Positions 1-21,961 of a stretch of DNA of 64,000 bases are shown piece after piece. Position 1 is the first letter of the stretch, and every line of letters starts with the position of its first letter. The stretch is taken from NCBI GenBank assembly GCA_016187835.1, contig JACPIY010000028.1, positions 33,455 to 97,454 on the forward strand, read 5' to 3'. This DNA comes from Deltaproteobacteria bacterium. Its GTDB lineage: Bacteria > Desulfobacterota_D > UBA1144 > Nemesobacterales > CSP1-2. A model generated the notes under the pieces. That model was not told the origin of the DNA. It searched no databases and saw only the letters and a list, made by a program, of their open reading frames with translations. A program made the position numbers and the translations under genes.

Positions 1-1
1 T

Positions 2-843: not shown

Positions 844-931
844 TGAGTTTGGCCTACCAATGCCTGAGCAAGATCGCCCTCTCATGCTGGTCTGCTCGAA
901 CCGCTTCTTAGGCCGGTTCCCGTTGAGGTGA

Positions 932-1615: not shown

Positions 1616-1739
1616 AATCGGGTCTCGAATTTCACGAGGTCCCGTGCCTTATAAGCGTTAAACGACTCCTTTATAATATAACTAAAACTGTTCCACTCTT
1701 TAGAAGAAACTTGTAGACCATTAGCCGCCGAAGGTTAAA

Positions 1740-2135: not shown

Positions 2136-2208
2136 TACTTTCTCCCCCTACCGTAGTGCCTGACTTCTCAAATACCTAATAGGAACTGCTTCTTTCTTCG
2201 ACTCTTGC

Positions 2209-2646
2209 TCAATCCTCATGACATGTCGGGGGTTCGTCTGTGGGTTCACTAAAACTAAGTATGTAGCCATTGCAGTCTCGGATAGCGAACTCTCTCCGGC
2301 CATAGTGATAAACCTCCGGACCCCACTCGATTTTCACCTTGTCCACAATCCGGGCATGGAGTCCCATCACATCTTCCACACCGATGTAAAGCTGTCCGGT
2401 AAAGGCCGGGTCCGGCTCGCGCTGGTCGGTATCAACGTAAAAACTTACATGCACATCCCCATGCTCGAGTATACAAAAGGTGTGGTTGTCCTCCGGCCAC
2501 ACGCAGCCCACCATGGACCCAAGTATTTGCGTGTAGAAGTCAATCGTTCGCCACAGGTCGGTCGTCTTGAGCATGGGCCTAATCTCTTTGAATTTGACCA
2601 CAAACCGCCTCCCTAAATTGTGATAATGCCCAAGGCGGTGCTGCAT
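2209..2646 (-). CDS. VOC (glyoxalase/bleomycin-resistance/dioxygenase) family protein. The likely true start is the internal Met at about 2574.
   Basis: VOC-like fold signature and composition (…WRTIDFYTQILG…HTFCILEHGDVHVSFYV…). It is adjacent to a second VOC gene. Confidence 0.55.
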   Translation of the reverse strand: MQHRLGHYHNLGRRFVVKFKEIRPMLKTTDLWRTIDFYTQILGSMVGCVWPEDNHTFCILEHGDVHVSFYVDTDQREPDPAFTGQLYIGVEDVMGLHARIVDKVKIEWGPEVYHYGRREFAIRDCNGYILSFSEPTDEPPTCHED

Positions 2647-2648
2647 AC

Positions 2649-3065
2649 CTACCCAGCGATCTCATCATACCGGCGTCCTAGGAACTCGATCAAGCAGAAG
2701 CCGTTACCGAAAGGGTCGGCCATGTTGGCGATGTGCCCCCATTTGTGTGTCTGGATATCACCCTCAAGCTGAGCCCCGGCAGCTTTTGCCTTTTGGACTG
2801 CCGCTTGAATATCTGCAACTACGAAGTCGAGGTGAACAGGAGTCCAATGTCTTTGATAGTCGCGCCGCTGTGGAGTATTGGGAGAAACAGAGCTACCAAC
2901 GGGCTTAGCCAAGAGATAGATAACTGAGGAAGCGCCGAGCATTTCGGCTACGCTATCGTTAAAACGGCGCCCTAATTTCAGTCCGAAAGCGTTGCCATAA
3001 AACTCTATCGCCCTCTCGAGATCATCTACATCTATGTTTGCAAGTAACTCGATTGTCATGATCAT
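2649..3065 (-). CDS. VOC (glyoxalase I-like) family protein
   Basis: IDVDDLERAIEFYGNAFGLKLGRRFND...VHLDFVVADIQAAVQKAKAAGAQLEGDIQTHKWGHIANMADPFGNGFCLIEF is typical of the glyoxalase/VOC superfamily. Confidence 0.6.
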   Translation of the reverse strand: MIMTIELLANIDVDDLERAIEFYGNAFGLKLGRRFNDSVAEMLGASSVIYLLAKPVGSSVSPNTPQRRDYQRHWTPVHLDFVVADIQAAVQKAKAAGAQLEGDIQTHKWGHIANMADPFGNGFCLIEFLGRRYDEIAG

Positions 3066-3177
3066 TCTAAATAGATGTTATAGGGGATCCTTGCATCTTT
3101 TTTCTTCTTTTTGGAGTGTACTTAAAGGGGCTTCCCAACTCAAGTAAATACGAGAAAAATTACGGACCAACGCCCCA

Positions 3178-3295
3178 ATATGCTTCTCGATAGGGTTCGT
3201 GAGGCTATAAGGCGCAAGCCTACAATTGGCGAAACACAGAATTAAAACACTCGGAGTTTTATAGTGGAATTTTGGAAGGTGCTAAACAGGTTTAA
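3178..3295. repeat. Repeat copy C: degenerate direct repeat of the GT gene 3' end
   Basis: About 80% identity to copy B. It reads MLLDRVREAIRRKPTIGETQN* and then NTRSFIVEFWKVLNR. Confidence 0.6.
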
Positions 3296-3385
3296 AAAAA
3301 ATTGCACATCTATACTACTTGTATCCATAAGGCATTGGTGGTCTGGCCGAGCCAATCAGTCTCAGGACTCCACCTACTCCTTCGA

Positions 3386-4267
3386 TCATGCAGCCATAGA
3401 AGCTACCTTAGCGAAATGCTCCGACAGACGGCGACGGCCGCGGGTGGGGGCGACGCACTCGCTGGTAAAGACCCGTGCGACGAATTCCAAGACCTCTCCG
3501 TAGCGGGGGTGTAACGGCTGTACCATGGCGGCGGTAGCCAAGAGCACATAGCGAGGGATGTGAAGTATTTTGGGCTTTTTACCAACCGTCTTAAATGCTA
3601 TCCGGGCGATTTCTTCGCGGGAAAGTATGTCGGGGCCGCCGATCGAGACGGAGACATCGTTGCCGAGTGTGAGGGTCTCAACGCATGTCTCTGCAACGTC
3701 GAGCGGATGAACGGGGTTGGTCAACGCCTTGCCATTGCCGGGAATATAGATGATCCCACGGCGAGCCATGTGCAGGAACGGGTCAAAAATCGGGAACGTG
3801 CCTGTTGGGCGAACGACGCCGAAAGAGATACCGGATTTCCTGAGTTCTTGGATAACCTCTTCGTGTGCCCGGATGTAGGCAGTCCGGGCGTAGCCCGGCT
3901 GGACATGGACGGATACATAGACAAAGCGGCTTACGCCTGCCTTATTTGCGGCTTGAACGAGGTTACAATTTGCTACGGTATCCACCTTGTGGAAGCTCCG
4001 GCGGTCTTTACCAGTGAAGCCCATAGGTGCGCCGAGACAGGAGATTACCGCATCCACTCCGTCGAAGACGTCGTCGAGACTCTTCGGCTTTGTTGCATCC
4101 CCGGTTGCGATCTCGTGGGCGATACCGCGAAGCGCTTGGGCGCGGGCAGGGTTTCTAGAAAATGTCTTGACCCGATAGCCCTTTTCGCGGAGGAGTTTTG
4201 CGACCTCGTGTCCCAGCATGTCGGTTGCGCCGGCGACGAGAACTGTCACAGAGGCTGCACCCTCCAC
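3386..4267 (-). CDS. NmrA-like / atypical SDR NAD(P)-binding protein
   Basis: N-terminal Rossmann motif TVLVAGATDMLGHEVAKLLREKGYRVKTFSRNP. The start may be the GTG overlapping the upstream stop (GTGA), which would indicate translational coupling. Confidence 0.65.
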   Translation of the reverse strand: MEGAASVTVLVAGATDMLGHEVAKLLREKGYRVKTFSRNPARAQALRGIAHEIATGDATKPKSLDDVFDGVDAVISCLGAPMGFTGKDRRSFHKVDTVANCNLVQAANKAGVSRFVYVSVHVQPGYARTAYIRAHEEVIQELRKSGISFGVVRPTGTFPIFDPFLHMARRGIIYIPGNGKALTNPVHPLDVAETCVETLTLGNDVSVSIGGPDILSREEIARIAFKTVGKKPKILHIPRYVLLATAAMVQPLHPRYGEVLEFVARVFTSECVAPTRGRRRLSEHFAKVASMAA

Positions 4268-5244
4268 TGAGGATGTCGCAGCAGCACGGAGCCCATCGGA
4301 TTTCTCTCCGGGCTGAACCAGATCTGAGACCAGCCTTCCAGTTGAATATCGAACCTAATCTCTAGCTGTACCCAAATGGACAGGTTCGGATTGGCTAAGC
4401 CGAACTCAATGGGCGGCATGGGAATAAAACCTTGAAGAAAAGCGTCCTTGAAACGTGACTCGTTCTCCTCTTCTATCAAAGTCTTGACCTCTTCCCTCGA
4501 GGCAAGTACGACGGGCGTTTCTACGGAATGTAACCCAGGGACACCGAAATCATGAGGGACCAGTTGTAGCGCGGTTTGTTTAAGGTGCAACCAGCACTTG
4601 CACCATTTGTCATCGGCTGCCCATAGCCAGTGCCAATAGCCAGTGAAGCCGGTGATCTGCCCAAATAGCTCGACGATGGGCGAGGATGCAAACCGGCCAC
4701 TGCTGGAGGGCGGCCTGCGATTCGCGTGCAGTTCAAAGTGAGCGACGGCCCCGGTGCTGGCGTGGATCAATGGGTCGTCATCGTAGTTGATGCCGCCAAA
4801 GAAGTGTAACCCGTCTGTGAGAAACGCGGTTTCAATCCCGCGTGAAGAGTGAAAATCTGTGCTTGCCCACCAGAACTCCCCATCGGCTGTCGGCTGTATG
4901 GGATGCGGTTCAATGTCTTGCGGTTTTATATGAAATAAACCTTCCGGGAGCTTGAAGCTACGCGCTACTTCCAAATTGGCTTCGTATTCCTGCCTGATAT
5001 TTGCCACATGCTCATGCAGATCGGGAATCTCCTTACGCACCAATTCAATAAGTCTCTTGTTCAAGCGGCGTTCTTCTTTGGATCCCTTCCTAACCGCAGC
5101 GGTTCGTCGTTGTCGTTGCTGCAGCTCCTTCATTTGCAGGTCTCGCAGCAATCTCAATGTTTTTTTGCTATCCTTGGGCACTTGATGAGACTCGTTGTGG
5201 ACCTCATTCCTGGTCATTGATGAATCTTTTGATTTTTTTGACAT
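4246..5244 (-). CDS. Hypothetical protein with a Lys/Arg-rich coiled-coil N-terminus and a C-terminal domain of unknown function
   Basis: The start is chosen at MSKKSKD because aaggag lies 6 nt upstream. I recognise no family. Its end overlaps the NmrA-like gene. Confidence 0.45.
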   Translation of the reverse strand: MSKKSKDSSMTRNEVHNESHQVPKDSKKTLRLLRDLQMKELQQRQRRTAAVRKGSKEERRLNKRLIELVRKEIPDLHEHVANIRQEYEANLEVARSFKLPEGLFHIKPQDIEPHPIQPTADGEFWWASTDFHSSRGIETAFLTDGLHFFGGINYDDDPLIHASTGAVAHFELHANRRPPSSSGRFASSPIVELFGQITGFTGYWHWLWAADDKWCKCWLHLKQTALQLVPHDFGVPGLHSVETPVVLASREEVKTLIEEENESRFKDAFLQGFIPMPPIEFGLANPNLSIWVQLEIRFDIQLEGWSQIWFSPERNPMGSVLLRHPQWRVQPL

Positions 5245-5417
5245 GATTGTCTCCTTTTCTCGGAAATCATACTTTAGCTTCACCAAATTGTCACGACCGC
5301 TAATTATTCGTAACCGACAGCCTTGCCTTAACTTATCTTTCCAATGCGACTAGCTATTTATTAGGTGGCAGCGATTTATACAACGCTGTCGATAACCGGT
5401 CATCACACGCTTCTCGG

Positions 5418-5837
5418 TCAAAGATGCTTTGTAACCAGAACGCGACCCTTTGCCCCGACGGCGGTCTGGCCGTCTTCACCCTTGACTCGACCTCGCAACT
5501 CAACGATGTCTCCACCAAGACGGGCGTTTGAGGTGACTTTAATCACAAGCCATTCGAGACGGATGGTCTCATCGGTAAATACAGCGCGGCGGAATCGCAC
5601 CCAGAACTCGAGACCGACCATCGAGGAACCCTTCGAGAAGTGGGCCGCGGTAAGCCCGAGAAGTAAAGCGGTGGTATGAGCACCGCTCGCAATCGGGCGA
5701 CGATATCTCGTTGTTGCCACAAAAACCGGATCATGATGGACCGGGTTGTCCTCGCCGGCAGCGCGGGCGAACTCAGCCACCATCGCGGGATTGAGCGCGA
5801 CCTGAGAAGAGAATCTGTCTCTTGGACGAACATTCAT
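5418..5837 (-). CDS. MaoC-like (R)-specific enoyl-CoA hydratase / hotdog-fold dehydratase
   Basis: FARAAGEDNPVHHDPVFV is the MaoC dehydratase signature (FAxxSGDxNPxHxD). Confidence 0.65.
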   Translation of the reverse strand: MNVRPRDRFSSQVALNPAMVAEFARAAGEDNPVHHDPVFVATTRYRRPIASGAHTTALLLGLTAAHFSKGSSMVGLEFWVRFRRAVFTDETIRLEWLVIKVTSNARLGGDIVELRGRVKGEDGQTAVGAKGRVLVTKHL

Positions 5838-6026
5838 GACCGGGCTCCCTTTGCCGGATGACGCCGAACAATTAATTAGGCTACATAGGTATTCTATTTA
5901 TCCTAACGTCCCTGATATACCCTGACCCTTTGCTTTACCTAATTTGGCACACAGAATACAAAGAGCCTGATTTCAAGTCAATAGTATAAGCACGGAGGTT
6001 GAGGATGTTTATGTAGATGTAAGAAA

Positions 6027-6085
6027 TAAATTTCTCGGCATAGCTTGGGAAGCACTGCGTTAAGTGCCGCTACCTCGCCATAGAT
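6027..6085. repeat. Possible fifth, highly degenerate copy (E) of the GT 3'-end repeat
   Basis: aaatttctcggcatagcttgggaagcactgcgttaagtgcc is about 60% similar to the start of copy B. It is preceded by gatttcaagtcaatag (5969-5984), the same flank motif that precedes copy B. Confidence 0.25.
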
Positions 6086-6094
6086 GATCCAGGC

Positions 6095-6465
6095 TCAACG
6101 AGCCTCCGCCAGCCACTGCCAAGTAAAGAAAGACAAAACTATAGAGCGCGGCAACTCTCCTTTATTCAGTAACGGCCAGAACTCCTGTGGTACGTGAACC
6201 ATAAAGTAGGCTACTGCCATCTGCCCAGAAAGTATGAAGGCAACGGGCCGGGTGAAGAGTCCAAGGAGTATAAGGAGCCCACACCGAAGAGTTCCAGCAC
6301 CCCAGCCATTCCCATCAACGACATTAGAGAAGGAGTCTGCTGAGCGGGCGGGATGGAGAAGAGTTTCTGACCTCCGTGCTGCATGAATAGCAAAGCTGTA
6401 GCGATCCGCATGACGCTGAGAAAGCACCGGGACAACTTAGAGAAGAATGAATTTGGATTAGCCAT
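6095..6465 (-). pseudogene. DoxX family membrane protein, split by a frameshift (ORFs 6211-6465 and 6095-6427 in different frames)
   Basis: The N-terminal part MRIATALLFMQHGGQKLF and the C-terminal part LLILLGLFTRPVAFILSGQMAVAYF are both DoxX-like but lie in different frames. Confidence 0.55.
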
Positions 6466-6663
6466 ACGATCCCTCCAGATATTAAGGACTTGTTTAGTAT
6501 TATGCTAAAAAGCGTTGTCTAAACGGTTAATCGTGCGAATAAAACTCGTATAATCATCGTTTGGTATGCTACAGAAAAACGTTGCACCCTAGAATTCGTT
6601 TGGCATTGTAATCAAAATATCTCTTTGAGTCTAAGAGCTGAGGGATCATGGAGTGATCTCAAT

Positions 6664-6765
6664 AAACCTCTCAATCGGGTTCGCGAGGCTAATTTCGAGC
6701 AGAGTTATTACTGGTGGAGCACCGCACTAAGACAACCAGAGTTTCATTAAAAGCAAATGTACTCG
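6664..6765. repeat. Repeat copy D: the most degenerate direct repeat of the GT 3' end
   Basis: ctcaatcgggttcgcgaggcta aligns with ctcgatagggttcgtgaggcta of copy C, and ...ctggtggagcaccgcactaagacaaccagagtttca aligns with ...attggcgaaacacagaattaaaacactcggagtttta. Confidence 0.5.
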
Positions 6766-6935
6766 GCTCATGAGCGAAACTCATGGCCTGTCCAGACCCG
6801 AAATTCTTGGGTAGTACATCAGTCTTGCCGGTGGACAGGAATAAGATGAGATTCTATTTCTGAAAGCTTACCCTGAGTTTAGCCCGAGGAGTCTTCGAGA
6901 TAACGAGCCGTCAGAACCTCTTTTACAAAAGGTTT

Positions 6936-7811
6936 TTAAAGATTAAGAGAAGAGAATTTATTTATCCTTTCTAACAGGTCACTGCTGATTTCGCCATGTG
7001 AGACTTCCTCTACCGGCCCTCGCATTCTCAATGACCAGTCCTCTCTCACTTCAATTTGAAGCTCTCCGCCCGGCATCGAAACGGTTATATAACTATCTGT
7101 AAAACCGTTTTTAACACACGCCGCTGCTACGGCACATGAACTGCTTCCCGATGCAAGCGTATAGCCGGCTCCCCGCTCCCAAATGAGAATATCTACTCTC
7201 TCTTTCGATATGACTTTGGCAAATTGAACGTTAGTTCGCTTGGGAAAAAGAGGATGAGTCTCAATTATGGGACCGAGTTTTCTCGTATAACCTTCATCCA
7301 GTTCGTGGGCAAAAACCACACAGTGTGGGTTTCCAACCGAAACCGCCGTGAATTTAAGTATCTCGCCGTTTATTCTAATTTCTTCACCCACTACTTCTCT
7401 CTCTTCGCCTTCAACGGGAATTAGATTGCTCCTAAAAGTGGCTTCTCCCATCTCTACCGTGACAAACGATGCTCTATCGTCTTTGGTCTCGAGCTCCGCT
7501 GTGACTATGCCCCCGAGTGTGTCTATCTTGAATGAGCTTTCTCTTGTATAACCATGCTCGTAGAGAAATTTGGAGAAGATTCTGAGCCCGTTTCCGCTCT
7601 TTTCCGCTTCGCTTCCATCCGGGTTAAAGATCATAAGCCCAAAGTCCGCTTTCTCGGATGGGACGAGAAGAAGTATGCCGTCTGAGCCTATTCCGTAATT
7701 TCTATGGCAGAGGAGTCTTATGACATATGGAGTAAGTTGAAAGGTAACATCGGCTTTATCGAGAACTATATAATCGTTTCCCAGTCCATGGGATTTAACA
7801 AATCGGTTCAT
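6936..7811 (-). CDS. dapF: Diaminopimelate epimerase
   Basis: MNRFVKSHGLGNDYIVLD and GNPHCVVF are the DapF signatures. Confidence 0.9.
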   Translation of the reverse strand: MNRFVKSHGLGNDYIVLDKADVTFQLTPYVIRLLCHRNYGIGSDGILLLVPSEKADFGLMIFNPDGSEAEKSGNGLRIFSKFLYEHGYTRESSFKIDTLGGIVTAELETKDDRASFVTVEMGEATFRSNLIPVEGEEREVVGEEIRINGEILKFTAVSVGNPHCVVFAHELDEGYTRKLGPIIETHPLFPKRTNVQFAKVISKERVDILIWERGAGYTLASGSSSCAVAAACVKNGFTDSYITVSMPGGELQIEVREDWSLRMRGPVEEVSHGEISSDLLERINKFSSLNL

Positions 7812-7964
7812 GTGTGAATCCTCTCTGTCTACCTAACTTGAAAGTAAATAATCAATGCATAGTTTTTCCTTGGTAAAAAAATAAAAGGGATTAAATACGC
7901 TGCGACCCTTTGAGTAAATATTTAGCACTAGACTACATGCAATCTTCTAATGAAGGTTTTATGC

Positions 7965-8375
7965 TTAAACTATTTCTTCTCTGTAGCCCTCTGCTCCGCG
8001 GAAGATAACTTTGAATAAATCGGTTGTGGAAATGATGCCTACCAATTTTCTTCCATCCATGACGGGAAGATAGCGGACGTTCTCCTCATACATAATCCTT
8101 ACCAGGTCGTCAATGTTATCCTCAGCCTGTGCGCATTGAACACTCTCGGTCATGACCTCGTTTATCTTTGTCTTCTCCAGGTCTTTATCCTCCGCGACTA
8201 CGCGGGAGAGAAGATCGCCCTGAGTAAATATGCCAAACGTCGGCCTTGGGGTTTGAACAATAAGAGCGCCCATATTGTGCATTGACATGATTCGAACTGC
8301 TTCCTTCACCGATGTGCTCTCATCAACTGAGAGGACGTCTTTGGTCATTATCTCGTGAGCTTTCATAACTAACAC
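7965..8375 (-). CDS. CBS-domain pair protein
   Basis: Two CBS motifs (IMTKDVLSV... and VMTESVQCAQ...RYLPVMDGRKLVGIISTTDL). Confidence 0.75.
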   Translation of the reverse strand: MLVMKAHEIMTKDVLSVDESTSVKEAVRIMSMHNMGALIVQTPRPTFGIFTQGDLLSRVVAEDKDLEKTKINEVMTESVQCAQAEDNIDDLVRIMYEENVRYLPVMDGRKLVGIISTTDLFKVIFRGAEGYREEIV

Positions 8376-8589
8376 CTCCTTAATATTATTTTAATGAGGC
8401 TTGTGCTTAATTTATAAACCAGCTTTATCCGTAGAGAGGCAGTCTTGTTATTCAACCAATATAATACATGCAAATGCAAACTGTTATGGGTTTATTGTAA
8501 ACAAAAATTTTATTTTGTACTAGTTGCTGAATATGAGATGAATAAAAGAGATAATGGCATGATTTTAAATGCAACTTTAACTCGATAAT

Positions 8590-8900
8590 TCCCTGTATCC
8601 CTGCTACAGGGTTTGCACTATTATTCCGAGCACATTCACCCTTCGGTTACACTCAGGGCATGCTTGGTTCAGTGTAAACTCAGCGAAGCAATCTCTCTTT
8701 TCGTTCATTTGTCATGTCGAACGCACGTGAGACATCTAGATTTCTCGTTTCACTCGAAATGACAAACTCAGCATCGGATTGCTTTGTCGCAGACTCTGCT
8801 CTGAGCCTGCCGCAGGGCTCCTCGCAAAATGACCAAGGCAAACGTCTGTGTTCACATGACGATACCCTGCAGCTTGCTGCGCGCTGATTCACTGTTGAGT
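8590..8900. repeat. Divergent member of the modular intergenic repeat family (see 46184 and 54664)
   Basis: It shares modules with the other copies: ctcagcgaagcaatct vs ctccgcgaagcaatctgaca; cccttcggttacactcagggca vs ccttcggcggagtttacactgagca; ctcgaaatgacaa vs gtcgaaatgacag. The 70-aa ORF at 8680-8892 lies inside it and is probably spurious. Confidence 0.35.
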
Positions 8901-8954
8901 TTAAGTTAAGGGTAGAGGAATCCGTGTTGCTTCTTAGTCATCATAAGATTGTAC

Positions 8955-9790
8955 TCATGGTGTCAATCCTTTAGGCACGCCGTTGGGAAAGTTCTCTTGA
9001 ATTGCCAGTTGAATTCGCTCAATGCGATTCTCTGGGTTGGGATGAGTGCTGAAAAATTCCGGCTGGCGCGTGCCTCCGGAGGCTTCCTCAAGAATCCTCA
9101 TCATTCCGACAAGAGCGCGTGGATCATAGCCAGCATCAGCCATGAAGCGTACGCCCAAAGTGTCTGATTGCAATTCGTCTTCGCGACCATACTTCATGTG
9201 GGATCATTTGGGTCATAAGTTGACATGACCAATGCTCCGGTAAGTCCCTGAGTCAGCTCTTGTTTGGCTATGCGCTGCGCGCTATGTCTTGCAACAACGT
9301 GCCCGATCTCGTGTCCCAAGACCCCCGCCAACTGTCCTTCGGTTTCGAGACGTTTGAAAAGTCCGGCTGTAATAAAAACCGGTCCCCCAGGCAGGGCAAA
9401 TCCATTCACTGTTTGCTCGTCAGCCAGCAAATGAAACTCAAAAGGGTAATTGGTTTGTGCGGCAGCACTGTTGGCAACCAGTTTTTTGCCTACGGCATCA
9501 ACGATTGCTTGGGCTCGTTGATCGGGATGTTCTCCGCCATATTCTGCTGTCATTTGTGGTGCAGCTTGGAGGCCTAGTGCGATTTCCTGCTCCTCGGTGG
9601 TGTTGATGTACTGTTTTTCACCTGTGATGGGGTTGTAGACGCTGGACATGAAATACGAAAAAAGTGCAAAAAGAGCCATGACCAGCCCAATGAGCAGGCG
9701 CGCTTTGCCAGAGCCACCCCTTGGACGGGTAGATGATGGGAAGGCGCGTTGGCTTAAAATCTCTCTTGTTGAAGGTCTTTGTCTGCTCAT
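8955..9790 (-). pseudogene. M48-family Zn metallopeptidase, split by a 1-bp frameshift near 9195
   Basis: HExxH motif GHEIGHVVARH in ORF 9194-9790. The downstream ORF 8955-9197 carries EDELQSDTLGVRFMADAGYDPRAL. The junction acatgaag looks like a deletion from acaatgaag. Confidence 0.6.
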
Positions 9791-9872
9791 GGTTCCTCCT
9801 TTTCATTTTGGGGGCGGTTGCCGCTTGGCAAATGTAAGGGATTTAGTTTACGTTTCGTATTTTACACATTGA

Positions 9873-10364
9873 TTATTCCTCGACAGGGACAAATTCTTCA
9901 ACTTCCAACCCCTCATAGTTGCCCCCAGCGAGTGCGCCAAAAATAATATGGCTTAGTGCCATGATCCAGCTTCGCATCGGAAAGAACCAAGGAAAGATCA
10001 AGGTGAAGGTGTAAAAGTTAATCAAATATAGGGCAAGCCCAAACAAAGCCCCGCCGAGAATCCCGACAAGTAGTCCCCAACGGTGGAATATAATAGCTAG
10101 TAAACAGGGGAAGCCTATGGAAAGAGGAATGTGAACGATAAGTGAAACGATAAAGATTGAGATATCAAACGTGGCAGGCGGAGGCAAAACGGTTTTGCCC
10201 ATCACTATAGAAGCAATTATACGAACTATAATCCAGGGACTGCCGAGATATATGGCAGTCAAAATCATGTTAATCACAAGGAAGATAATGCCGCTAATCA
10301 CACCAGCCCACACCGCCGCGCTCCAGTCAACAACTTGTCTCATTTTAGCTGCTGCTTGGCTCAT
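9873..10364 (-). CDS. Polytopic membrane protein, function unknown
   Basis: Four to five hydrophobic helices. Confidence 0.45.
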   Translation of the reverse strand: MSQAAAKMRQVVDWSAAVWAGVISGIIFLVINMILTAIYLGSPWIIVRIIASIVMGKTVLPPPATFDISIFIVSLIVHIPLSIGFPCLLAIIFHRWGLLVGILGGALFGLALYLINFYTFTLIFPWFFPMRSWIMALSHIIFGALAGGNYEGLEVEEFVPVEE

Positions 10365-10847
10365 GCGGACCTACTATGTGGTTTCACCAATTCTCAATTT
10401 TCGTAAACTGAAAGAGATAAAAGTGGTGAATGTCTTCGTTCATTTGTTGATTATGTGGAATTTGTCTTTTTTCGGAGGATCTAAATAAAATGTCTTATTA
10501 AGTCAAGGGCATAGGGGAAAATTCTGGAACTGGAACGACATCCCTACGGTCAATTTTTGAGGGTACCTTATTAAATCTTTCCTTATTCCCATGATTGTTC
10601 TGCCCTTCAAGAAATGCCTATATTTTGTCTACAAAAGCTTACTTTATAAGCAGTAAAGCATGGTAAAGATACCTAGAAAAGACAAAGACTGCTCCGAGGG
10701 GTTGCTTGTTTCCAAGGAGGTGTGTCGGAGCAGTCTTTGGATAAGCCTACTCATTTAGTTTGTTTGGCAATACTCGTGCCACTTGTGATTCATGTGATAT
10801 ATTAAATAAATAAATAAATAAAAAAATTCTCAGATAGTGAAGAACAA

Positions 10848-15336: not shown

Positions 15337-15546
15337 TATTGATTCGATAAAAATAAGGCGATTTTTTGACCAATTGCAAGTCTTATGTTTTTTTCTCTAC
15401 GAGCATTTAAGGTTGGTTTTATATATGAAATTAAGGTCAGTCCACCAGTCTTGCTGGTAGGGGCTACAACGAGGAAGCTGGCTTGAGCTTGATGAGGAAC
15501 TAGCTACGTGGTTGTCATGCACGAATGTATTAATTGGGCATCCATT

Positions 15547-15572
15547 TAGAGACGCCATTAATGGCGTCTCTA
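15547..15572. promoter_or_regulatory. 26-bp perfect palindrome tagagacgccattaatggcgtctcta
   Basis: Checked base by base. It has the same outer half-sites (TAGAGAC-N12-GTCTCTA) as the palindrome at 37435-37464. Confidence 0.5.
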
Positions 15573-15749
15573 CCATATTAGATTCCCACTAAGTACTTGC
15601 AAGTGACAGATTTATATATTCGCTAGAGCGTATTTATGTGTAACATCGGTTGAGAATGCCACTAAGTTTATACACTACAGACAAACTGATGTCGTGCTGG
15701 GTCTTTGATGTGGACTGAGTTTAAGTGTCTGTAGTACGATCCGACTTCT

Positions 15750-16064
15750 TTATGCCGAGTGTCTGCATTCGGGAAGAATGTGGCTACGTTCGACATCCTC
15801 AAGAGTGTCTGAGCTAGTGGGCTGTGAACCGGCATTCAGTCCCAAAACAGACTCGTCAATCTGAAGTTCTGAGCCATGAGAAATCACTACTGCCCTTTCA
15901 ATTACATTCTGTAGCTCTCTTATGTTTCCAGGCCAAGAATAGTTAGTAAGCCGATCCATAGTATCCTTTGGAACAACTCTAACTTGTTTCCCAAACTTTT
16001 TCGTGAATTTGACAAAACAGCTTAGGGCGTTAAAACCTGAGTGGGCAAATTGTAACGTGAGAGA
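15750..16064 (-). pseudogene. Remnant of a sigma-54-dependent (NtrC/EBP-type) transcriptional activator, consisting only of the C-terminal end of the AAA+ domain and a degraded HTH
   Basis: ...FVKFTKKFGKQVRVVPKDTMDRLTNYSWPGNIRELQNVIERAVV matches the EBP C-terminal consensus (YxWPGNVRELxNxIERA). An upstream in-frame TAG leaves no room for the receiver and ATPase N-terminus. Confidence 0.55.
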
Positions 16065-16359
16065 AAGCTAATAATATCATTTTAAGAAAAAGATTCCGGC
16101 TTTTAAAAGTTATGTAAAACCAAGGAGAGTGGGGCAGTTCGCGAACCGCCCTACAACAAAATTTAGGATCCATTCAATGAACTTGTATAACCCTTGTTTT
16201 TCAGAAACTTAGTTTTATAATTTTACGAAAGGGCGATGATTGATTAATATATTAATAAGAACGATTGCATTAGAGGAGTGACAAGAATTCGTATTATTAT
16301 TTAATATAAGTTTACGAATTCGACCGCATCTGGTACAGAGCTAATGGAGGGATGAAGTA

Positions 16360-16518
16360 ATGCCTAAGAAGGGGCGAAGAAAAATAAAAGATTTGGTTGA
16401 CATGCTTGAAGATCCGGATAACTCGGGTTATATCGGTGGCGATTACGAAGACCTAATGGAACAAATTGAAAGAGAATTGGCCGAACAAGAGGAAGATCAA
16501 GAAATAAAAGAAGAATAG
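16360..16518 (+). CDS. Small acidic protein (52 aa), hypothetical
   Basis: ATG with ggaggg 8 nt upstream. It reads MPKKGRRKIKDLVDMLEDPDNSGYIGGDYEDLMEQIERELAEQEEDQEIKEE. It overlaps the 3' end of mnmG convergently by 22 nt. Confidence 0.3.
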   Translation: MPKKGRRKIKDLVDMLEDPDNSGYIGGDYEDLMEQIERELAEQEEDQEIKEE

Positions 16519-18407
16519 CTTTCTTTACTTTGAAGTTCCTTCCGTTTTAGGTAAACCATGAGAACAGAAATTGCAGCGGGTGTAATCCCCGATATTCGGC
16601 TTGCCTGTCCGAGAGAATTTGGACGAATTCGTGAAAGTTTTTGGACGATTTCTCTTGAGAGACCAGGGATGCTTTCATATGAAAAACTTTCGGGTATTTT
16701 TATGTTTTCAATCTGCTTAAATTTATCTACCTGCTCCATCTGTTTTTGAATATAACCTTCGTACTTAACTTCCATTTCAACTTGTGAGAAAATATCGCTG
16801 CCGATAAAAGCTCTAGAAGGCGGATCAATGAAACTGAGTTCATTATATGAAATCTCAGGACGTCTTAAAATTTCTTTAAGTGTCTGTGGTTTCTTAAGCT
16901 GTGAAGAACCAAGTTGCAGAAGGATTTCATTAAACTTGGAGTTCGGAAGAATCTTTGTGTTTTCCAGTCTGTCAAGTTCTTCTCGAATCCTTCTTTTCTT
17001 GTCTAGAAAACTCTCAAAATCACCTTCCTTGACTAGACCAATTTTATAACCCTTTTCTCTGAGTCGTAGGTCAGCATTATCTTCTCTGAGAATTAGACGA
17101 TACTCAGCACGCGAGGTAAACATCCTGTACGGCTCATCCACTCCTTTTGTTACAAGGTCGTCAATCAGTATCCCAATATAAGCCTCGGCACGGTCAAATA
17201 TAAGAGGTTCCTCTCCTTTTACGAGAAGCGCTGCGTTTATTCCAGCGATAAGCCCCTGGGACGCTGCTTCCTCGTAACCTGTCGTGCCGTTTATCTGCCC
17301 TGCAAAAAAGAGATTCTCGATGATCTTTGTTTCCAGCGTTGGTTTTAGTTGAGTAGGATCCGAAAAATCGTATTCAACTGCGTATCCCGGTCTCATAATT
17401 TCAACCTGTTCGAGACCTCTAATCGTCCTTATAAATTCATATTGAACTTCAAGCGGAAGGCTTGTTGAAATCCCGTTTGGATAAATCTCATAGGTGGCGA
17501 CTCCTTCAGGTTCAAGGAATATCTGATGCCTTTCCTTGTCAGGAAACTTTACAACCTTATCCTCGATTGAAGGACAGTATCTTGGACCGATGCCTTTAAT
17601 CACTCCCGAATAAAGCGGCGATTTATGCAGGTTGTCTCTAATTACCTGATGACTCTTTTCATTTGTATACGTTATGTAACACGGTAGCTGTTCTCTTTCG
17701 ATTCTGTCGTTTGAGAATGAAAACGGTTTAGGATCGGAATCTCCGGGTTGGACCTCGAGTATTTCCCAGTTGACTGTTCTTCCGTCGAGTCTTGGTGGAG
17801 TTCCGGTTTTGAGCCTTCCGATTTTAAAACCAAGGCTCTCGAATGAATCGGAAATCCCAACGGCAGGCGCTTCGCCTGCACGTCCTGCAGAAATCTGTGT
17901 TAGCCCTATGTGCATGAGTCCATTTGGAAACGTGCCCGGAGTAACCACTACGGCATCGGCGAAGAAATGCTCCCCAAGATTGGTTTTTACTCCAACTACT
18001 TTTCCCCCTTCAACCAGAAAACCCTCCACCATTCTCTGCTTTATATCAATGTTTTTCTCTGCCTCAAGGACTTTTCTCATGTAGATTTTGTAGGCTTGTC
18101 TGTCTGCCTGAATTCTCGTTGCTTGAACAGCGGCTCCTTTCCTTGTGTTTAGTCTTCTGAATTGAATCGCGGTTGCATCAGCGGCTTTTCCCATCTCTCC
18201 GCCAAGAGCGTCTATCTCCTTTACGAGATGTCCTTTCCCAACCCCGCCAATAGAGGGATTACAGGACATAAGCCCTATAGTATCAATGTTTGCAGTTAGT
18301 AGAAGGGTCTTACATCCCATCCTCGCCGGTGCAAGCGCGGCTTCACACCCTGCGTGTCCTGCGCCGATTACGATTACCTGATGTTTCTTTGTGTATGTAA
18401 TAGCCAT
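16497..18407 (-). CDS. mnmG: tRNA uridine-5-carboxymethylaminomethyl modification enzyme MnmG (GidA)
   Basis: MAITYTKKHQVIVIGAGHAGCEAA... is full-length MnmG (636 aa). Confidence 0.92.
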   Translation of the reverse strand: MAITYTKKHQVIVIGAGHAGCEAALAPARMGCKTLLLTANIDTIGLMSCNPSIGGVGKGHLVKEIDALGGEMGKAADATAIQFRRLNTRKGAAVQATRIQADRQAYKIYMRKVLEAEKNIDIKQRMVEGFLVEGGKVVGVKTNLGEHFFADAVVVTPGTFPNGLMHIGLTQISAGRAGEAPAVGISDSFESLGFKIGRLKTGTPPRLDGRTVNWEILEVQPGDSDPKPFSFSNDRIEREQLPCYITYTNEKSHQVIRDNLHKSPLYSGVIKGIGPRYCPSIEDKVVKFPDKERHQIFLEPEGVATYEIYPNGISTSLPLEVQYEFIRTIRGLEQVEIMRPGYAVEYDFSDPTQLKPTLETKIIENLFFAGQINGTTGYEEAASQGLIAGINAALLVKGEEPLIFDRAEAYIGILIDDLVTKGVDEPYRMFTSRAEYRLILREDNADLRLREKGYKIGLVKEGDFESFLDKKRRIREELDRLENTKILPNSKFNEILLQLGSSQLKKPQTLKEILRRPEISYNELSFIDPPSRAFIGSDIFSQVEMEVKYEGYIQKQMEQVDKFKQIENIKIPESFSYESIPGLSREIVQKLSRIRPNSLGQASRISGITPAAISVLMVYLKRKELQSKESYSSFIS

Positions 18408-18506
18408 AGTTTTAGCTGCCTTCCTTCAAATGAATTTAGAAAATTCTAAATACACAATGAGGAATCGTCAAATGTTTGCCTTTCTTGCTTTGTAAGTGAG
18501 TGTTAT

Positions 18507-18628
18507 CTGGGAAATGATGTGGCTAAATGTAGAGCGAATATTTTAGTGAAGGCTTATCTTCACTGAAAATGATAGAACTAATTTTGTAGGAGTTAAAATT
18601 TACTTGAGTACTGCTTTACTAGCTTGGA
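18507..18628. repeat. Left copy of a roughly 125-bp direct repeat that flanks the GC-rich segment 18629-21439
   Basis: About 75% identical to 21440-21570 (gggaaatga.g.ggctaa..gt.gagc.aata.ttt ... cttgga). Confidence 0.5.
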
Positions 18629-18670
18629 AAAAAACAGTTGACAAGTATGAATGATTTTGATATAAGTTGC

Positions 18671-18706
18671 CCTAAAGAACTAGTACTAAAGTACTAGTTC
18701 TTTAGG
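18671..18706. promoter_or_regulatory. Perfect inverted repeat cctaaagaactagtact-aa-agtactagttctttagg (17-2-17), 35 nt upstream of the 18742 gene, in the mnmG divergent region
   Basis: Verified by reverse complement. It is a candidate operator. Confidence 0.5.
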
Positions 18707-18741
18707 ATTAATTTTTACAGGAAAGGGAATGAGGTTCTCCA

Positions 18742-19179
18742 ATGGTGAGGGAAGAATTAGAAAAGGTCTGGGAAAAACATACCACCGCAGAGTTTCTGAA
18801 AAGAGATTTGGAGGCAACCATGGCGACGATGGTGGATGAACCTTACATTAAAATAATACCAATCAATGTCGGTGGAAGTGGTAAAGATGGAGTGCGTGCG
18901 TTCTACAGTGACGTTATGATTCCGTCGATTCCCGATGACCTTCAGGCAAGGATCATAAATCGCATTATTGGCGATAGGCATTTAGTAGATGAAATATACT
19001 TTACTTTCACTCACAACAAGCAGATGGATTGGTTCCTACCAGGCATACCCTCCACAAACAAGAGGATAGAACTTGAACACGTGGTAGTAGTGGAGTTTCG
19101 CGGTGACAAAATCGCAGGTGAGCGCGTTTACTGGGACCACGCAACGGTGTTGCGGCAAGTGGGGCTGTTGAAAGATTAA
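18742..19179 (+). CDS. NTF2-like / SnoaL-like small protein
   Basis: Size and pattern (…EFLKRDLEATMATMVDEPYIKIIP…ERVYWDHATVLRQVGLL) are consistent with the SnoaL/limonene-epoxide-hydrolase-like fold. This is a weak call. Confidence 0.4.
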   Translation: MVREELEKVWEKHTTAEFLKRDLEATMATMVDEPYIKIIPINVGGSGKDGVRAFYSDVMIPSIPDDLQARIINRIIGDRHLVDEIYFTFTHNKQMDWFLPGIPSTNKRIELEHVVVVEFRGDKIAGERVYWDHATVLRQVGLLKD

Positions 19180-19264
19180 GAATAGGAGTGGCTATTTTTT
19201 TTAACTTCTGCCGCGAGAACTATATTTGGCGCCACCTGACAAAAAGTAGTCAAGAGGTGATTTA

Positions 19265-19843
19265 GTGAATTTTGAAGAAAATTTTACAAGGAGTAAGATT
19301 ACTCGCCGAGATATGCTTGCCAAGATGGGTACTGGTTTGGTGGCCATCACGGTTAGCAGTGTTTGGGGGCAAATTAGTCCTTCACAAGCTCGGGCCAAAG
19401 GTGTAGCGCTGCGTAACCTTACCACTGTTGAAGGCCGTACGCTGGAGGCTCTCGGAGACATTTTGCTGCCTGGTGCCAGCGAAGCTGGTATTGCGCACTA
19501 TGTAGATGACCAGTTGAGTCGCGAAAATCCACTATTTGTCCTGAAATACATGGATTATGTTGGTTCCTATACCGAATTTTATAAACAGGGTTTGCAATCG
19601 CTGGAACGCCAAAGCCTCGCCAACCATGGTCAGCCTTTCGATACGAGTACTCTCGAGCAAAAGGTCGCGCTAGTGCGCGAGATTTCACAGAAAAACCCGG
19701 ATGGCTGGAGCGGACCACCTGCGCCTTTGTTTTATTTTGTCACCCGCAACGACGCTGTAGATGTTTACTATGGCACGACGCGGGGCTTTGAGAAGCTTGC
19801 GATTCCCTATATGGCCCATATTATACCGCCGCAAAAGTGGTGA
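19265..19843 (+). CDS. Gluconate 2-dehydrogenase subunit 3-like small subunit with a Tat signal
   Basis: A twin-arginine motif (TRRDMLAKMGTGLVAITVSS) precedes a domain typical of the small subunits that pair with GMC flavoproteins. Confidence 0.55.
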   Translation: MNFEENFTRSKITRRDMLAKMGTGLVAITVSSVWGQISPSQARAKGVALRNLTTVEGRTLEALGDILLPGASEAGIAHYVDDQLSRENPLFVLKYMDYVGSYTEFYKQGLQSLERQSLANHGQPFDTSTLEQKVALVREISQKNPDGWSGPPAPLFYFVTRNDAVDVYYGTTRGFEKLAIPYMAHIIPPQKW

Positions 19844-21410
19844 TAGATATAATGGATAAAGTTGATGTTGTGATTGTAGGGTCAGGAGCTTCGGGAAGCT
19901 TACTCGCAGCCAAATTGTCTCAAGCTGGCAAAAAAGTGTTGATTCTGGAGGCAGGTCCTGAGCTCAAAATGAGTTATCTTTACAGCTCACAGATCTGGGC
20001 GCGCCGCCTTAAGTGGGGTGGTCCAGCCACCGAAACAGGTGGGAAAGACCCCATTTCCGTAGCATTCAACCAGGGTTGGGGGAGTGGTGGAGTTGCAATG
20101 CACCACTACGCAGTGTGGTTGAGACTGTACATAGAAGACTTTGAGATGAAAAGTCGGTTCGGCCGGGGCTTGAAATGGCCTATTTCATACGAAGAGTTGC
20201 GTCCATTTTACGACCAAATTCAGAGAGAAGTCGGTATTTCGGGAGACGCTAAAGAAGAGGTGTGGAGACCAGTGGGCGAGCCTTACCCTATGCCCCCACT
20301 TCAGATTTTCAATCAGGGTAGGATTATTGAGGGGGGATTTAAAAAACTGGGTTTGCGCACTTCGTCACTTCCGGTGGCCATTAACTCGATAGAGTATAAC
20401 GGTCGCCCTGCTTGTATTTATGACGGCTGGTGTGATGCGGGCTGACCGATTTACGCCCTTGCAAACCCTCTGGCCGTTTACTTGCCACAGGCGCAAAAAG
20501 CGGGGAGTAAGATTGCACACGACATTTATGTTACTCGCATATTGGTTAAAGCTAAAGGTGATCGAGCAACCGGAGTTGAGTATTACGACGCCAAAGGTCA
20601 GCGTCAAGTTCAGGAGGCGAGCATAGTTATTTTGGCGGCGTTCACAGTGCAGAACCCTAGAATTCTGCTCAACTCTTTCACTACCAAGCATACCAATGGG
20701 CTTGCCAACTCAAGCCGATTACTCGGTAAGTACATGATGGCACACACTGCAGCCAACGTGTTTGGTCTTTTTAAAGAAGAAACTCAGAACTTCCTAGGTG
20801 TGACCGGCGGACAACTCTTGTCGCAAGACAATTATGCCAAGGACCCGCGCAAGGGCTATCTTGGCAGTTCACAGTGGGTACTCGCTAACGCTCTCAAACC
20901 CAACGACTTATTGGGTGTCGCCAACGCTCGTCCCGACCTGTTTGGTGACTCACTGCACAAATTTCTTGAAACCGCCAGTAAGCATCTTGCCACTATGAGT
21001 TTTTTGGCGAGAACTTGCCGAGTTTAGACAGTCAGTTGGTTATGAGCAATTATAAAGACAAGTACGGTCTACCATTGGCGCGCGTGATCCACGACTACGG
21101 TCCAGATGACATCAAATGTTTTGAGGTAGGTATGAAACAAGGACAAGAAATTTTCAAAGCGGCAGGAGCTTACGATGTTTGGGTCAGCGGGCGAGCCAAC
21201 GCGCACATGATGGGAGGCACGATCATGGGCCGCAGTGCTCTGACTTCGGTAACAAATAGCCACGGACAAACCCAAGATATTATCAACCTGTTCATAGCAG
21301 GGCCAGGCCTTTTCCCCACGGGAGGTGCTGTGAATCCGACCTTTACAATTCATGCGCTAACACTGCGGTCAGCCAAATATATACTTGACAACTGGTCAGC
21401 TCTGACTTAA
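19837..21410 (+). pseudogene. GMC-family FAD flavoprotein (gluconate 2-dehydrogenase large-subunit-like), disrupted by an in-frame TGA at 20443-20445 and a frameshift in a T6 run near 21005
   Basis: N-terminal DVVIVGSGASG dinucleotide fold. GWCDAG-TGA-PIYALANP sits where the GMC motif has GC-P. The pieces MSFLAR / GENLPSLDS are separated by a one-base shift in agttttttgg. The C-terminus GPGLFPTGGAVNPTFTIHAL is the GMC C-terminal motif. Confidence 0.65.
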
Positions 21411-21439
21411 AAATTGATCAGTCTTACAGATTTCAGTTG

Positions 21440-21570
21440 TCCGGGAAATGAGGGGGCTAAGCGTGGAGCAAATACTTTGGTTAAGACTCGTCATTTTAAA
21501 GTTAAACAAAAGATAGAATCAATTGCTGGGAGTCTACACTTTTCTAGCGAACTGCTTCTACTTGCTTGGA
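21440..21570. repeat. Right copy of the direct repeat flanking the GC-rich segment
   Basis: See 18507-18628. Confidence 0.5.
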
Positions 21571-21637
21571 GTTTCTAGCATCAATGGAATCCCAAGTAAG
21601 AGAATGGTAAAATGACCATCCAACTAATGGGTATGAT

Positions 21638-21961
21638 ATGACCACACCAAAAGAGATATTTGCTAAGCTCGAACGCAAAATCTTGGAAAGAGCCGGCGAG
21701 TTTTCTCAAATAGGCGGAATCTATAAATTTGTATTGAACGGAGTTGATGGCGGCACCTGGGTGGTGGATTTAAGGAAGGATTCTTTTGGTGTAAGAGAAA
21801 GCGACGAAGAAGCTCAGTGCAAAGTTACGATTTCATCTCAAGATTTTGTTCAAATAGCCACGGGAAAGCTAAAAGCTGATTCGGCATTCATGAGAGGGAA
21901 ATTAAAACTTATTGGAGACCTGGGTCTTGCGATGAAACTCGGGAAGCTTTTTGTAAAATAA
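21638..21961 (+). CDS. SCP2 sterol-carrier-like domain protein
   Basis: FMRGKLKLIGDLGLAMKL is the SCP-2 C-terminal motif. Confidence 0.75.
   Translation: MTTPKEIFAKLERKILERAGEFSQIGGIYKFVLNGVDGGTWVVDLRKDSFGVRESDEEAQCKVTISSQDFVQIATGKLKADSAFMRGKLKLIGDLGLAMKLGKLFVK

Follow-up and report, generated by a model that had tools for sequence, protein, structure and literature searches.

The locus described here lies between mnmG, which encodes the tRNA uridine 5-carboxymethylaminomethyl modification enzyme, and a gene for an SCP2-domain protein, two divergently transcribed native genes in a 64,000-nt stretch of Candidatus Dadabacteria DNA (hereafter, the window). The mnmG product shares 84% amino acid identity with Candidatus Dadabacteria MAGs, and the SCP2-domain protein is 96% identical to protein P0151 of the related locus L090. 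Between the two genes, a SnoaL-like gene, a gene for a small subunit with a twin-arginine (Tat) signal and a GMC flavoprotein gene follow one another on the plus strand, enclosed by two direct repeats of roughly 130 bp (Table 1). Both native promoters are intact. In an alignment of 10 intergenic regions, the mnmG promoter motifs CGTCAA and ATTCTAAAT are conserved, as are the blocks TGGAATCCC / TAGAATCCC and TGGTAAAAT of the SCP2 promoter. The initial annotation had the left repeat overlapping the mnmG promoter, but the predicted core promoter lies clear of it: the repeat begins 31 bp upstream of the predicted −35 box.

Table 1 Features of the mnmG–SCP2 locus, in window coordinates.
Feature	Position	Strand	Description and basis
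mnmG, native left neighbour	16497..18407	-	Pfam GIDA, E=1e-172
mnmG core promoter (predicted)	18443..18471	-	TTGACG-17-TAGAAT, intact; promoter scan
Lineage-specific inserted segment	18478..21584	.	3107 bp; each boundary good to ~10 bp
Left terminal direct repeat	18502..18628	+	127 bp, 33% GC
Candidate operon promoter	18638..18666	+	TTGACA-17-TATAAG; read from the sequence
Perfect 17-bp inverted repeat	18671..18706	+	2-nt loop, followed by ATTAATTTTT; between left repeat and SnoaL-like gene; unique
SnoaL-like / ester-cyclase-like gene	18742..19179	+	intact, 145 aa; Pfam SnoaL, 1.5e-8
Gluconate_2-dh3 small 'hitchhiker' subunit gene	19265..19843	+	intact, 192 aa; Pfam PF13618, 4e-15
GMC flavoprotein catalytic subunit, pseudogene	19852..21410	+	three pieces; Pfam GMC_oxred_N and GMC_oxred_C on fragments
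In-frame TGA	20443..20445	+	at third Cys of C-x5-C-x3-C; TGT in both homologues with DNA read
T6 run marking 1-nt deletion	21000..21005	+	frame 1 to frame 0 (−1 change); in conserved TFVGE block
Right terminal direct repeat	21436..21570	+	135 bp, 41.5% GC
SCP2 promoter region, native	21585..21613	+	TGGAAT-17-TAAAAT with TG extension, intact; conserved in relatives
SCP2-domain gene, native right neighbour	21638..21961	+	Pfam SCP2, 5.5e-22

Alignments of the window with its relatives L090, L092 and L093 end at 18416–18477 and restart at 21585, and in the 11 relatives with a readable junction (L007, L008, L009, L013, L014, L016, L059, L090, L091, L092 and L093, which span about 95% down to about 75% nucleotide identity) mnmG stands back-to-back with the SCP2 gene, with no block between. 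The relatives' mnmG–SCP2 spacer, which lies between the conserved promoter blocks, measures 13–20 bp. When 18478–21584 is removed in silico, the intergenic region becomes collinear with those of the relatives; the 3107-bp block is therefore a lineage-specific insertion into the 13–20-bp spacer of two divergent promoters. This is the outcome that a comparison set in advance had predicted for an acquired element, the interpretation first proposed for the block. In L090, the nearest relative with an empty site, mnmG is 94.7% identical to that of the window at the nucleotide level, and dS between the two is 0.17 for mnmG and 0.19 for SCP2. The insertion would therefore date to one Candidatus Dadabacteria lineage after its split from this nearest sampled relative. 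A 3.1-kb foreign fragment with a three-gene operon would have entered the spacer flanked by the back-to-back −35 elements of the two native promoters, presumably by illegitimate recombination at the sole neutral site that this compact pair of divergent promoters offers.

The initial annotation of the cargo is borne out by Pfam matches for all three proteins and by the TRRDML motif of the small subunit. Homologues of the SnoaL-like protein, also of 145 residues and 69% identical in amino acid sequence, are encoded by stand-alone genes in Dadabacteria genomes of the CSP1-2 type. The small subunit carries its twin-arginine signal TRRDML near the N terminus (...SKITRRDMLAKMG...), and homologues of the same 192-residue length adjoin a GMC gene in L087, L103 and L104. 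Both genes are intact, with lengths that match those of their homologues, and the damage is confined to the GMC gene; the view of the cargo as decaying thus holds for that gene and not for the other two. Upstream of the SnoaL-like gene lie the candidate operon promoter, which has a T missing at −7 and was not listed by the promoter scan, and the inverted repeat, the form of which suggests a terminator or operator hairpin.

The fragments of the GMC gene are best annotated as one pseudogene. Besides the matches in Table 1, they give Rossmann-type matches (N-terminal FAD-binding), and the FAD GxGxxG motif is present. The repaired reading comprises 519 residues and aligns along 100% of its length, at 76% identity, with an intact 519-residue homologue. 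Its full length also aligns with the large subunits of Gluconobacter fructose dehydrogenase and Burkholderia cepacia FAD-glucose dehydrogenase (FAD-GDH) (E of about 1e-57); the solved enzymes share little identity with it, and no NCBIfam equivalog matched. The nonsense codon and the frameshift noted initially are both present. In the C-x5-C-x3-C motif, Cys188 and Cys194 are retained and position 198 is the TGA stop; the spacing is that of Cys212, Cys218 and Cys222, the 3Fe–4S ligands of B. cepacia FAD-GDH (PMC6719666). Judged by homology, then, TGA replaces the TGT codon of the third 3Fe–4S cysteine ligand, a nearly invariant residue that is Cys in all 12 aligned homologues, the frames of which are uninterrupted. 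The sequence at the frameshift is most simply derived from an ancestral AGT TTT GTT GGC (SFVG) by deletion of a single G. Independent metagenome assemblies from four sequencing runs, at 99.8–100% identity to the window, contain the TGA in three of the three that cover it and the T6 run in four of four. The gene is probably dead: the change of TGT to TGA would remove an Fe–S ligand and truncate the product at residue 197, and the 1-nt deletion downstream would shift the frame.

The insert resembles the catalytic (alpha) and hitchhiker (gamma) subunits of direct-electron-transfer (DET) FAD-dependent dehydrogenase complexes, such as B. cepacia FAD-GDH (6A2U), Gluconobacter fructose dehydrogenase (7W2J) and gluconate 2-dehydrogenase. 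As in these DET FAD-dehydrogenases, the adjacent PF13618 small subunit bears a Tat signal and the large subunit bears none. In contrast to them, the insert has no multihaem cytochrome c (beta) subunit, which is also missing from the modules of L087, L089, L103 and L104; a SnoaL-like gene is attached, an association found in L089 as well; and the catalytic gene is a pseudogene that lacks the third Fe–S cysteine and an uninterrupted frame. The solved homologues suggest that, in the intact form, the signal-less catalytic subunit would have been exported to the periplasm by means of the Tat signal of the small subunit and would have oxidised a sugar- or alcohol-type substrate, with electrons passing from FAD through the 3Fe–4S cluster to an external acceptor.

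The GC content of the block, initially described as visibly higher, does exceed that of its surroundings, but only modestly: the small-subunit and GMC genes have 49% GC and the SnoaL-like gene 45%, against 41–44% in the flanking genes and 42.6% in the window. Genes at 10 to 64 kb have about 42% GC, and the part of the window from 1 to 10.4 kb is richer still. The closest intact modules of small subunit plus GMC protein show 71–76% amino acid identity and lie in loci of 47–68% GC, and a search of plasmids and phages gave a sole match, a distant one at the coding level (67%), to a small-subunit and GMC pair on a Deinococcus plasmid. As to the donor, the nearest GMC homologue is only 76% identical, and the nearest homologues of the SnoaL-like gene (69%) are stand-alone genes of Dadabacteria themselves, so that a composite cassette or one acquired within the phylum is also conceivable.

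The imperfect direct repeats, first described as about 125 bp long and about 75% identical, are real and reach five and four bases further than was given. In a gapped alignment 88 of 127 sites are identical (69%), with 74–77% identity in ungapped blocks; blastn within the window pairs the copies at E=3e-8, and their local alignment score is 67, compared with 18.9 ± 2.4 in 1000 shuffles (z=20). The copies keep a constant register at a start-to-start spacing of 2934–2941 bp and are best conserved at both ends (GGGAAATGA and ACTGCTT.TACT.GCTTGGA). The left repeat is the AT-richer (directional differences 21 vs 10, p=0.07). Alignments to the empty-site relatives place both copies within the inserted DNA, and no trace of the repeat was found in any of the 11 empty-site intergenic regions. 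The window, the 64 kb of the source genome that the search covered, holds only these two copies; none was found in about 100 fetched loci (nhmmer and blastn), including beside the closest GMC and SnoaL homologues (L087–L089 and L096–L104). Two exact-pattern scans of JGI metagenome contigs gave no match, and of two scans of IMG/VR one was empty and the other returned two chance matches inside coding regions.

Several identities for the repeat were tried and rejected. The similarity reaches neither the native SCP2 promoter nor the left flank, as the adjoining 24–25 bp align no better than shuffles (p of about 0.5–0.6). One frame reads GN[DE].AK..AN.LVK in both copies, but as a coding remnant the repeat fails: the differences by codon position are 3, 5 and 7 of 15 (hand count), the left copy has an early stop and a 7-nt indel disrupts the frame. 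A 54-aa ORF at 21414–21578 has no Pfam match. No Rfam family matched the window at gathering thresholds, and RNAalifold gives a weak consensus fold, of −10 kcal/mol for the plus and −1.6 kcal/mol for the minus strand. A template and variable repeat pair of a DGR is contradicted by mismatches that are not adenine-specific and by the absence of a reverse transcriptase.

The repeats were initially taken as a footprint of acquisition or, alternatively, of a duplication-mediated insertion. Neither proposal survives: both copies lie inside the insert, empty sites have none, and the Jukes–Cantor distance between the copies is about 0.40, whereas copies inserted as identical sequences after the L090 split would be at most about 0.18 apart. 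This age argument takes the empty site of L090 as ancestral rather than restored by allelic replacement, treats the dS of mnmG as an approximately neutral rate and uses 127 sites. Because the repeats are absent from every empty site and about twofold too diverged for the time since insertion, the comparison indicates that they were part of the incoming fragment and did not arise as a target duplication. They would then be the ends of the imported DNA; and because they would already have been diverged on arrival, their likeliest origin is a pair of paralogous non-coding sequences on either side of the donor operon. Overall, we consider it probable that a foreign operon was inserted, that its GMC gene has since been inactivated and that the repeats are imported ends that diverged before arrival. 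The block is ordinary gene gain followed by decay, and its one odd feature is the pair of repeats.

The repeats invite other accounts of the insertion. A circular molecule carrying the operon could have recombined with a copy of the repeat already in the spacer, by a single crossover (Campbell-type or site-specific) between diverged homologues and with a recombinase acting in trans, leaving repeats like attL and attR. The exact delimitation of the cargo by direct repeats, their conservation at both ends, the GC difference between the left and right copies (as if one were native and one foreign) and a different GC-rich gene in the same spacer of the Dadabacteria locus L010 all fit this account. 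We nevertheless regard it as unlikely, given that neither L090 nor the ten other empty sites has a trace of the repeat, that no integrase, transposase or tRNA lies in or next to the block, that the window, the fetched loci, the JGI contigs and IMG/VR hold no further copy, that the L010 insert has no flanking repeats and that RecA-type recombination would be very inefficient at 70% identity. The direct orientation at both ends, constant register and regular spacing would also suit repeats that were identical at insertion and diverged afterwards, a type of reading to which the initially proposed duplication-mediated insertion belongs. Such repeats could stem from a 2934-bp circular or concatemeric element that integrated as a piece of more than unit length, or from tandem duplication of the cassette followed by deletion. 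This is improbable: the distance between the copies is about twice the neutral maximum since the L090 split, the 1.56-kb GMC gene gained only two lesions over the same period, the block has no replication or rolling-circle gene and the similarity stops at the repeat edge. Least credible of all is that the cassette is ancestral at the locus and was lost precisely in every sampled relative. Direct repeats could in principle mediate a deletion, but such a deletion leaves one copy, which all 11 relatives lack, and this effectively refutes the idea; moreover, relatives at several depths share the same short spacer, and the composition and nearest homologues of the cassette are foreign.

A further alternative concerns the GMC gene, which might be recoded rather than dead, with UGA read as selenocysteine and the frame restored by −1 slippage on U_UUU_UUG. 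The UGA falls exactly at the conserved Cys codon, a −1 slip at 21000–21006 yields ...SFLGENLP... and a protein as long as the homologues, the 96-nt stretch that spans and follows the slip site folds better than shuffles (z=−2.9), and every assembly that covers the UGA and the T6 run has them. Against this, the UGA is not followed by a SECIS-like hairpin (z=+1.0), the window contains no tRNA-Sec, the Cys is an Fe–S ligand that, like the uninterrupted frame, is kept by 12 of 12 aligned homologues, one G deletion (consensus FVGE) accounts for the frameshift, the small-subunit gene of the same operon stops at TGA, and two independent recoding devices in a single gene are improbable. We therefore give recoding very little credence.

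Measured against mobile-element classes, the block shows the presence and absence at a fixed site among relatives that is expected of an integrative element. Every ORF in 18478–21584 is accounted for and none encodes an integrase or recombinase; the window contains no tRNA or tmRNA target. Like attL/attR or target-site duplications, the direct repeats mark both ends of the insert exactly; unlike them, they share nothing with the empty site, so that no att core in common with an attB emerged, and they are much longer than target duplications, only 69% identical and unaccompanied by a recombinase. A MITE or IS-bounded composite was rejected, as the repeat has no inverted ends and only two copies in the window, as was an attC-bounded integron cassette, given repeats with no consensus hairpin and an unremarkable fold (z of −1.3 to −1.8); no integron integrase was found in the insert's region of the window. 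The block is more like a pseudogenised islet of horizontally transferred DNA, being intergenic, absent from close relatives, above the host in GC, with its nearest homologues in other lineages, and beginning to lose function. It differs from such islets in having no integrase, tRNA target or IS element and in ending in ~130-bp direct repeats that were already diverged on arrival and do not stem from the target. There is a slim chance that the repeats are the ends of an undescribed non-autonomous direct-repeat cassette, with its recombinase elsewhere, that targets divergent-promoter spacers in Dadabacteria; if so, the independent L010 insertion would represent a second cargo moved by a related mechanism.

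The locus reveals no new mechanism. It is a clean, datable case, from the uncultured phylum Candidatus Dadabacteria, of gene gain and early decay, in which the empty site, the boundaries and two inactivating mutations are all directly readable. It is also useful for considering where compact genomes tolerate insertions, as foreign genes have settled in the mnmG–SCP2 promoter spacer on at least two occasions in the phylum, here and in L010, where the inserted gene encodes a dioxygenase. Beyond these two foreign-gene insertions, the mnmG–SCP2 intergenic region has received small insertions at least twice more in the phylum.

The mnmG protein is 72–84% identical to homologues in MAGs, most of them labelled Candidatus Dadabacteria or Thermodesulfobacteriota and a few differently. 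In seven of these MAGs (L007, L008, L009, L013, L014, L016 and L059) mnmG and the SCP2 gene are immediate divergent neighbours, 136–256 bp apart, and the gap holds no SnoaL or GMC gene. A search with the SCP2 protein retrieved four closer relatives, L090, L091, L092 and L093 (SCP2 96% identical in amino acids in L090 and L091; L090 mnmG 94.7% identical in nucleotides to the window, dS 0.17; L092 and L093 89.5% and 82% identical in nucleotides), and mnmG adjoins SCP2 in all four. The direct mnmG–SCP2 junction that the initial annotation proposed to look for in relatives is thus present in both sets. Alignments of the L090–L093 loci to the window end at 18416–18477 and restart exactly at 21585, and in silico removal of 18478–21584 leaves an intergenic region collinear with 10 of 10 aligned relatives. 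Because this removal restores collinearity with the conserved promoter blocks of the relatives, the alignments show the block to be a lineage-specific insertion of 3107 bp in the spacer that separates two back-to-back promoters.

The predicted core promoters of mnmG and SCP2 both survive the insertion. The left of the two direct repeats that bound the inserted genes had been thought to overlap the mnmG promoter; it starts 31 bp upstream of the −35 box, clear of the core promoter. An independent 1.08-kb insertion occupies the same inter-promoter spacer in Candidatus Dadabacteria PMV_6.24 (L010, 2359–3578). It encodes a 278-aa protein with an intradiol dioxygenase domain (PF00775), in a gene of 53% GC versus 42.7% for the locus, and is not flanked by direct repeats. 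Together, the two insertions indicate that foreign genes have entered the mnmG–SCP2 spacer of this phylum on at least two occasions. The mnmG leader, between −10 box and start codon, carries insertions of ~190 bp at L090:2851–3040 and L092:1907–2095, and of ~115 bp within the 256-bp intergenic region of L009. All of them include a hairpin, such as GTAGAGACGCAAAATTTTGCGTCTCTAC in L090; none is related to the repeats of the window, where these insertions are missing.

Features of the insert and of the regulatory region that it occupies
Feature	Position	Strand	Size	Description or basis
mnmG promoter (predicted)	18443–18471	−		TTGACG-17-TAGAAT; conserved blocks ATTCTAAAT and CGTCAA in aligned relatives
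Variable spacer	between mnmG and SCP2 promoters		13–20 bp	alignment of intergenic regions
SCP2 extended −10 promoter				conserved blocks TGGAATCCC and TGGTAAAAT; alignment of intergenic regions
Left direct repeat	18502–18628			pairwise alignment with right copy
SnoaL-like gene	18742–19179		145 aa	intact, normal length
Gluconate_2-dh3 small-subunit gene	19265–19843		192 aa	twin-arginine motif TRRDML; intact, normal length
GMC oxidoreductase gene	between repeats		519 aa (repaired protein)	three ORFs
Right direct repeat	21436–21570			pairwise alignment with left copy

The gene content first reported between the repeats, a SnoaL-like protein, a Tat small subunit and a GMC flavoprotein, is found there. 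The repaired GMC protein shares 76% identity across its full length with an intact protein of 519 aa; its homologues number >3000 at E ≤ 1e-20. The closest intact GMC genes all lie directly downstream of a small-subunit gene, in loci of 47–68% GC; the partner subunit has 192 aa in L087, L103 and L104 and 180 aa in L089, a locus that also has a SnoaL-domain gene, placed after the GMC gene and not before the small subunit. The nearest homologues of the window's SnoaL gene (69% aa, 75% nt) stand alone in Dadabacteria CSP1-2-type genomes, so the cassette may be composite or may come from within the phylum. The small-subunit and GMC genes have a GC content of 49% and the SnoaL gene one of 45%, against 41–44% in neighbouring genes and 42.6% in the window. 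The block is thus richer in GC, as had been claimed, but the excess, although real, is modest, and window 1–10400 is higher. Genes in that region have 45–58% GC and GC3 up to 64%, versus 40–44% for most of the window; this stronger compositional anomaly may be another acquired region. By these sequence measures, the composition and homologues of the insert lean foreign.

A solved-structure search aligns the repaired GMC protein end to end (E ~1e-57) with the large subunits from Gluconobacter fructose dehydrogenase (7W2J) and from Burkholderia cepacia FAD-glucose dehydrogenase (6A2U); it matches no NCBIfam equivalog. The B. cepacia enzyme binds, through Cys212, Cys218 and Cys222, a 3Fe-4S cluster that relays electrons from FAD, and its complex is exported by the Tat signal of the small gamma subunit, a ‘hitchhiker’ (PMC6719666). 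This C-x5-C-x3-C spacing recurs in the window GMC protein, at Cys188, Cys194 and position 198. The cargo resembles the gamma–alpha core of FAD-dependent dehydrogenase complexes, but lacks three of their defining features: it has neither the third Fe–S cysteine nor an uninterrupted frame, and the cassette has no gene for a cytochrome subunit. The operon would once have encoded a periplasmic two-subunit flavoprotein dehydrogenase.

Both a nonsense codon and a frameshift had been reported in the GMC gene, and both are borne out. ORFs one and two share a frame and are split by TGA at 20443–20445; ORF three, in the −1 frame, is entered at a T6 run (21000–21005). Position 198 is Cys in 12 of 12 aligned homologues, with codon TGT in both homologues whose DNA was read, from which the window's TGA is a single transversion. 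At the frameshift, homologues read ATG ACC TTT GTA/GTC GGG/GGC GAA/GAG (TFVGE) and the window ATG AGT TTT TTG GCG AG, which loss of G from a GTT codon explains exactly. Independent assemblies of four sequencing runs gave contigs with 99.8–100% identity to the window. Because all three contigs that span the TGA site carry the TGA, and all four that span 21000–21005 carry the T6 run, the lesions are real, carried by every sampled assembly covering them. Two more SNPs, at 20349 and 20365, segregate within the pseudogene. Independent Logan contigs break at identical coordinates (L001, L004 and L005 at 17513; L001, L002 and L003 at 22159), which hints at co-occurring strain variants branching in the assembly graph. 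Judged by its reading frame, the catalytic gene is shown to be dead; the decay ascribed to the whole module applies to this gene only. Recoding, with UGA read as selenocysteine and a −1 slip on U_UUU_UUG, is formally possible but very unlikely: no SECIS-like hairpin is seen (z=+1.0), the residue at the UGA is an Fe–S ligand, homologues need no recoding and TGA serves as a stop in a neighbouring gene.

The flanking repeats themselves are genuine. A repeat search finds ungapped blocks of 53, 23 and 17 nt in constant register (spacing 2934–2941 bp, identity 74–82%), blastn within the 64-kb window gives one 136-column alignment (E=3e-8) and no third copy, and local alignment of the two intergenic stretches scores 67 versus 18.9 ± 2.4 in 1000 shuffles. 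Global alignment matches 88 of 127 sites, with no similarity beyond the repeats in either flank; the left copy is AT-richer (33% GC versus 41.5%; directional differences 21 versus 10, p=0.07). Both copies lie within the inserted DNA and no empty site holds a trace of their sequence, which excludes a target-site duplication and equally an attL/attR pair with a core in common with attB. Integration at a repeat copy already in place, whether Campbell-type or site-specific, is unlikely; the insert has no recombinase, transposase or replication gene, and the window no tRNA. It is improbable that the repeats are a terminal redundancy made at insertion: their Jukes–Cantor distance of ~0.40 (p=0.31, 127 sites) exceeds the full window–L090 dS of 0.17–0.19, the maximum for copies identical at an insertion after that split. 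The copies therefore probably differed already when the DNA arrived and so predate the insertion that brought them in; the presence of only two lesions in the 1.56-kb GMC gene is consistent with this. Of the original acquired-element footprint, then, the insertion stands on the empty sites, but the pre-diverged repeats are not its mark. An ancestral block lost in all relatives is scarcely credible.

Most economically, these pre-diverged ~130-bp terminal direct repeats would be a pair of paralogous non-coding sequences that flanked the operon in its donor and were passively carried in. They lack a codon-position signal and a convincing common fold, a 54-aa ORF over the right copy matches no family, and nothing in the window matches an Rfam family. 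Further copies are absent from ~100 fetched loci, JGI metagenome contigs (two patterns) and IMG/VR. The insertion would have been illegitimate, and tolerated in that the inter-promoter spacer seems to be the only neutral point of the 140-bp regulatory region. The block behaves as a small genomic islet, without the integrase and att logic of integrative elements, and the locus is a fresh example of a familiar process rather than a new kind of system.

The stretch of the insert that separates the left repeat from the SnoaL gene contains a perfect 17-bp inverted repeat (18671–18706) with a 2-nt loop and then a T-rich tail, unique in the window and all fetched loci. Its perfection while the adjoining repeats diverged by 30% suggests that a terminator or operator function keeps it intact. 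At 15450–16185 the window has 736 bp where L090 has 71 bp, including a 69-aa ORF (15750–15959, −) whose sole match is the AAA+ lid domain (PF25601). This resembles what is left of an AAA+ regulator gene and would be a second pseudogene beside mnmG. Finally, a 55-bp stretch (46411–46465) is 98% identical to L093:4807–4861, whereas the genes of L093 are only ~80% identical. The two copies lie in non-homologous intergenic regions, that of L093 between SCP2 and a rhodanese gene, and the stretch is probably a miniature mobile repeat; by eye, the SnoaL homologue in L096 has a similar sequence upstream.
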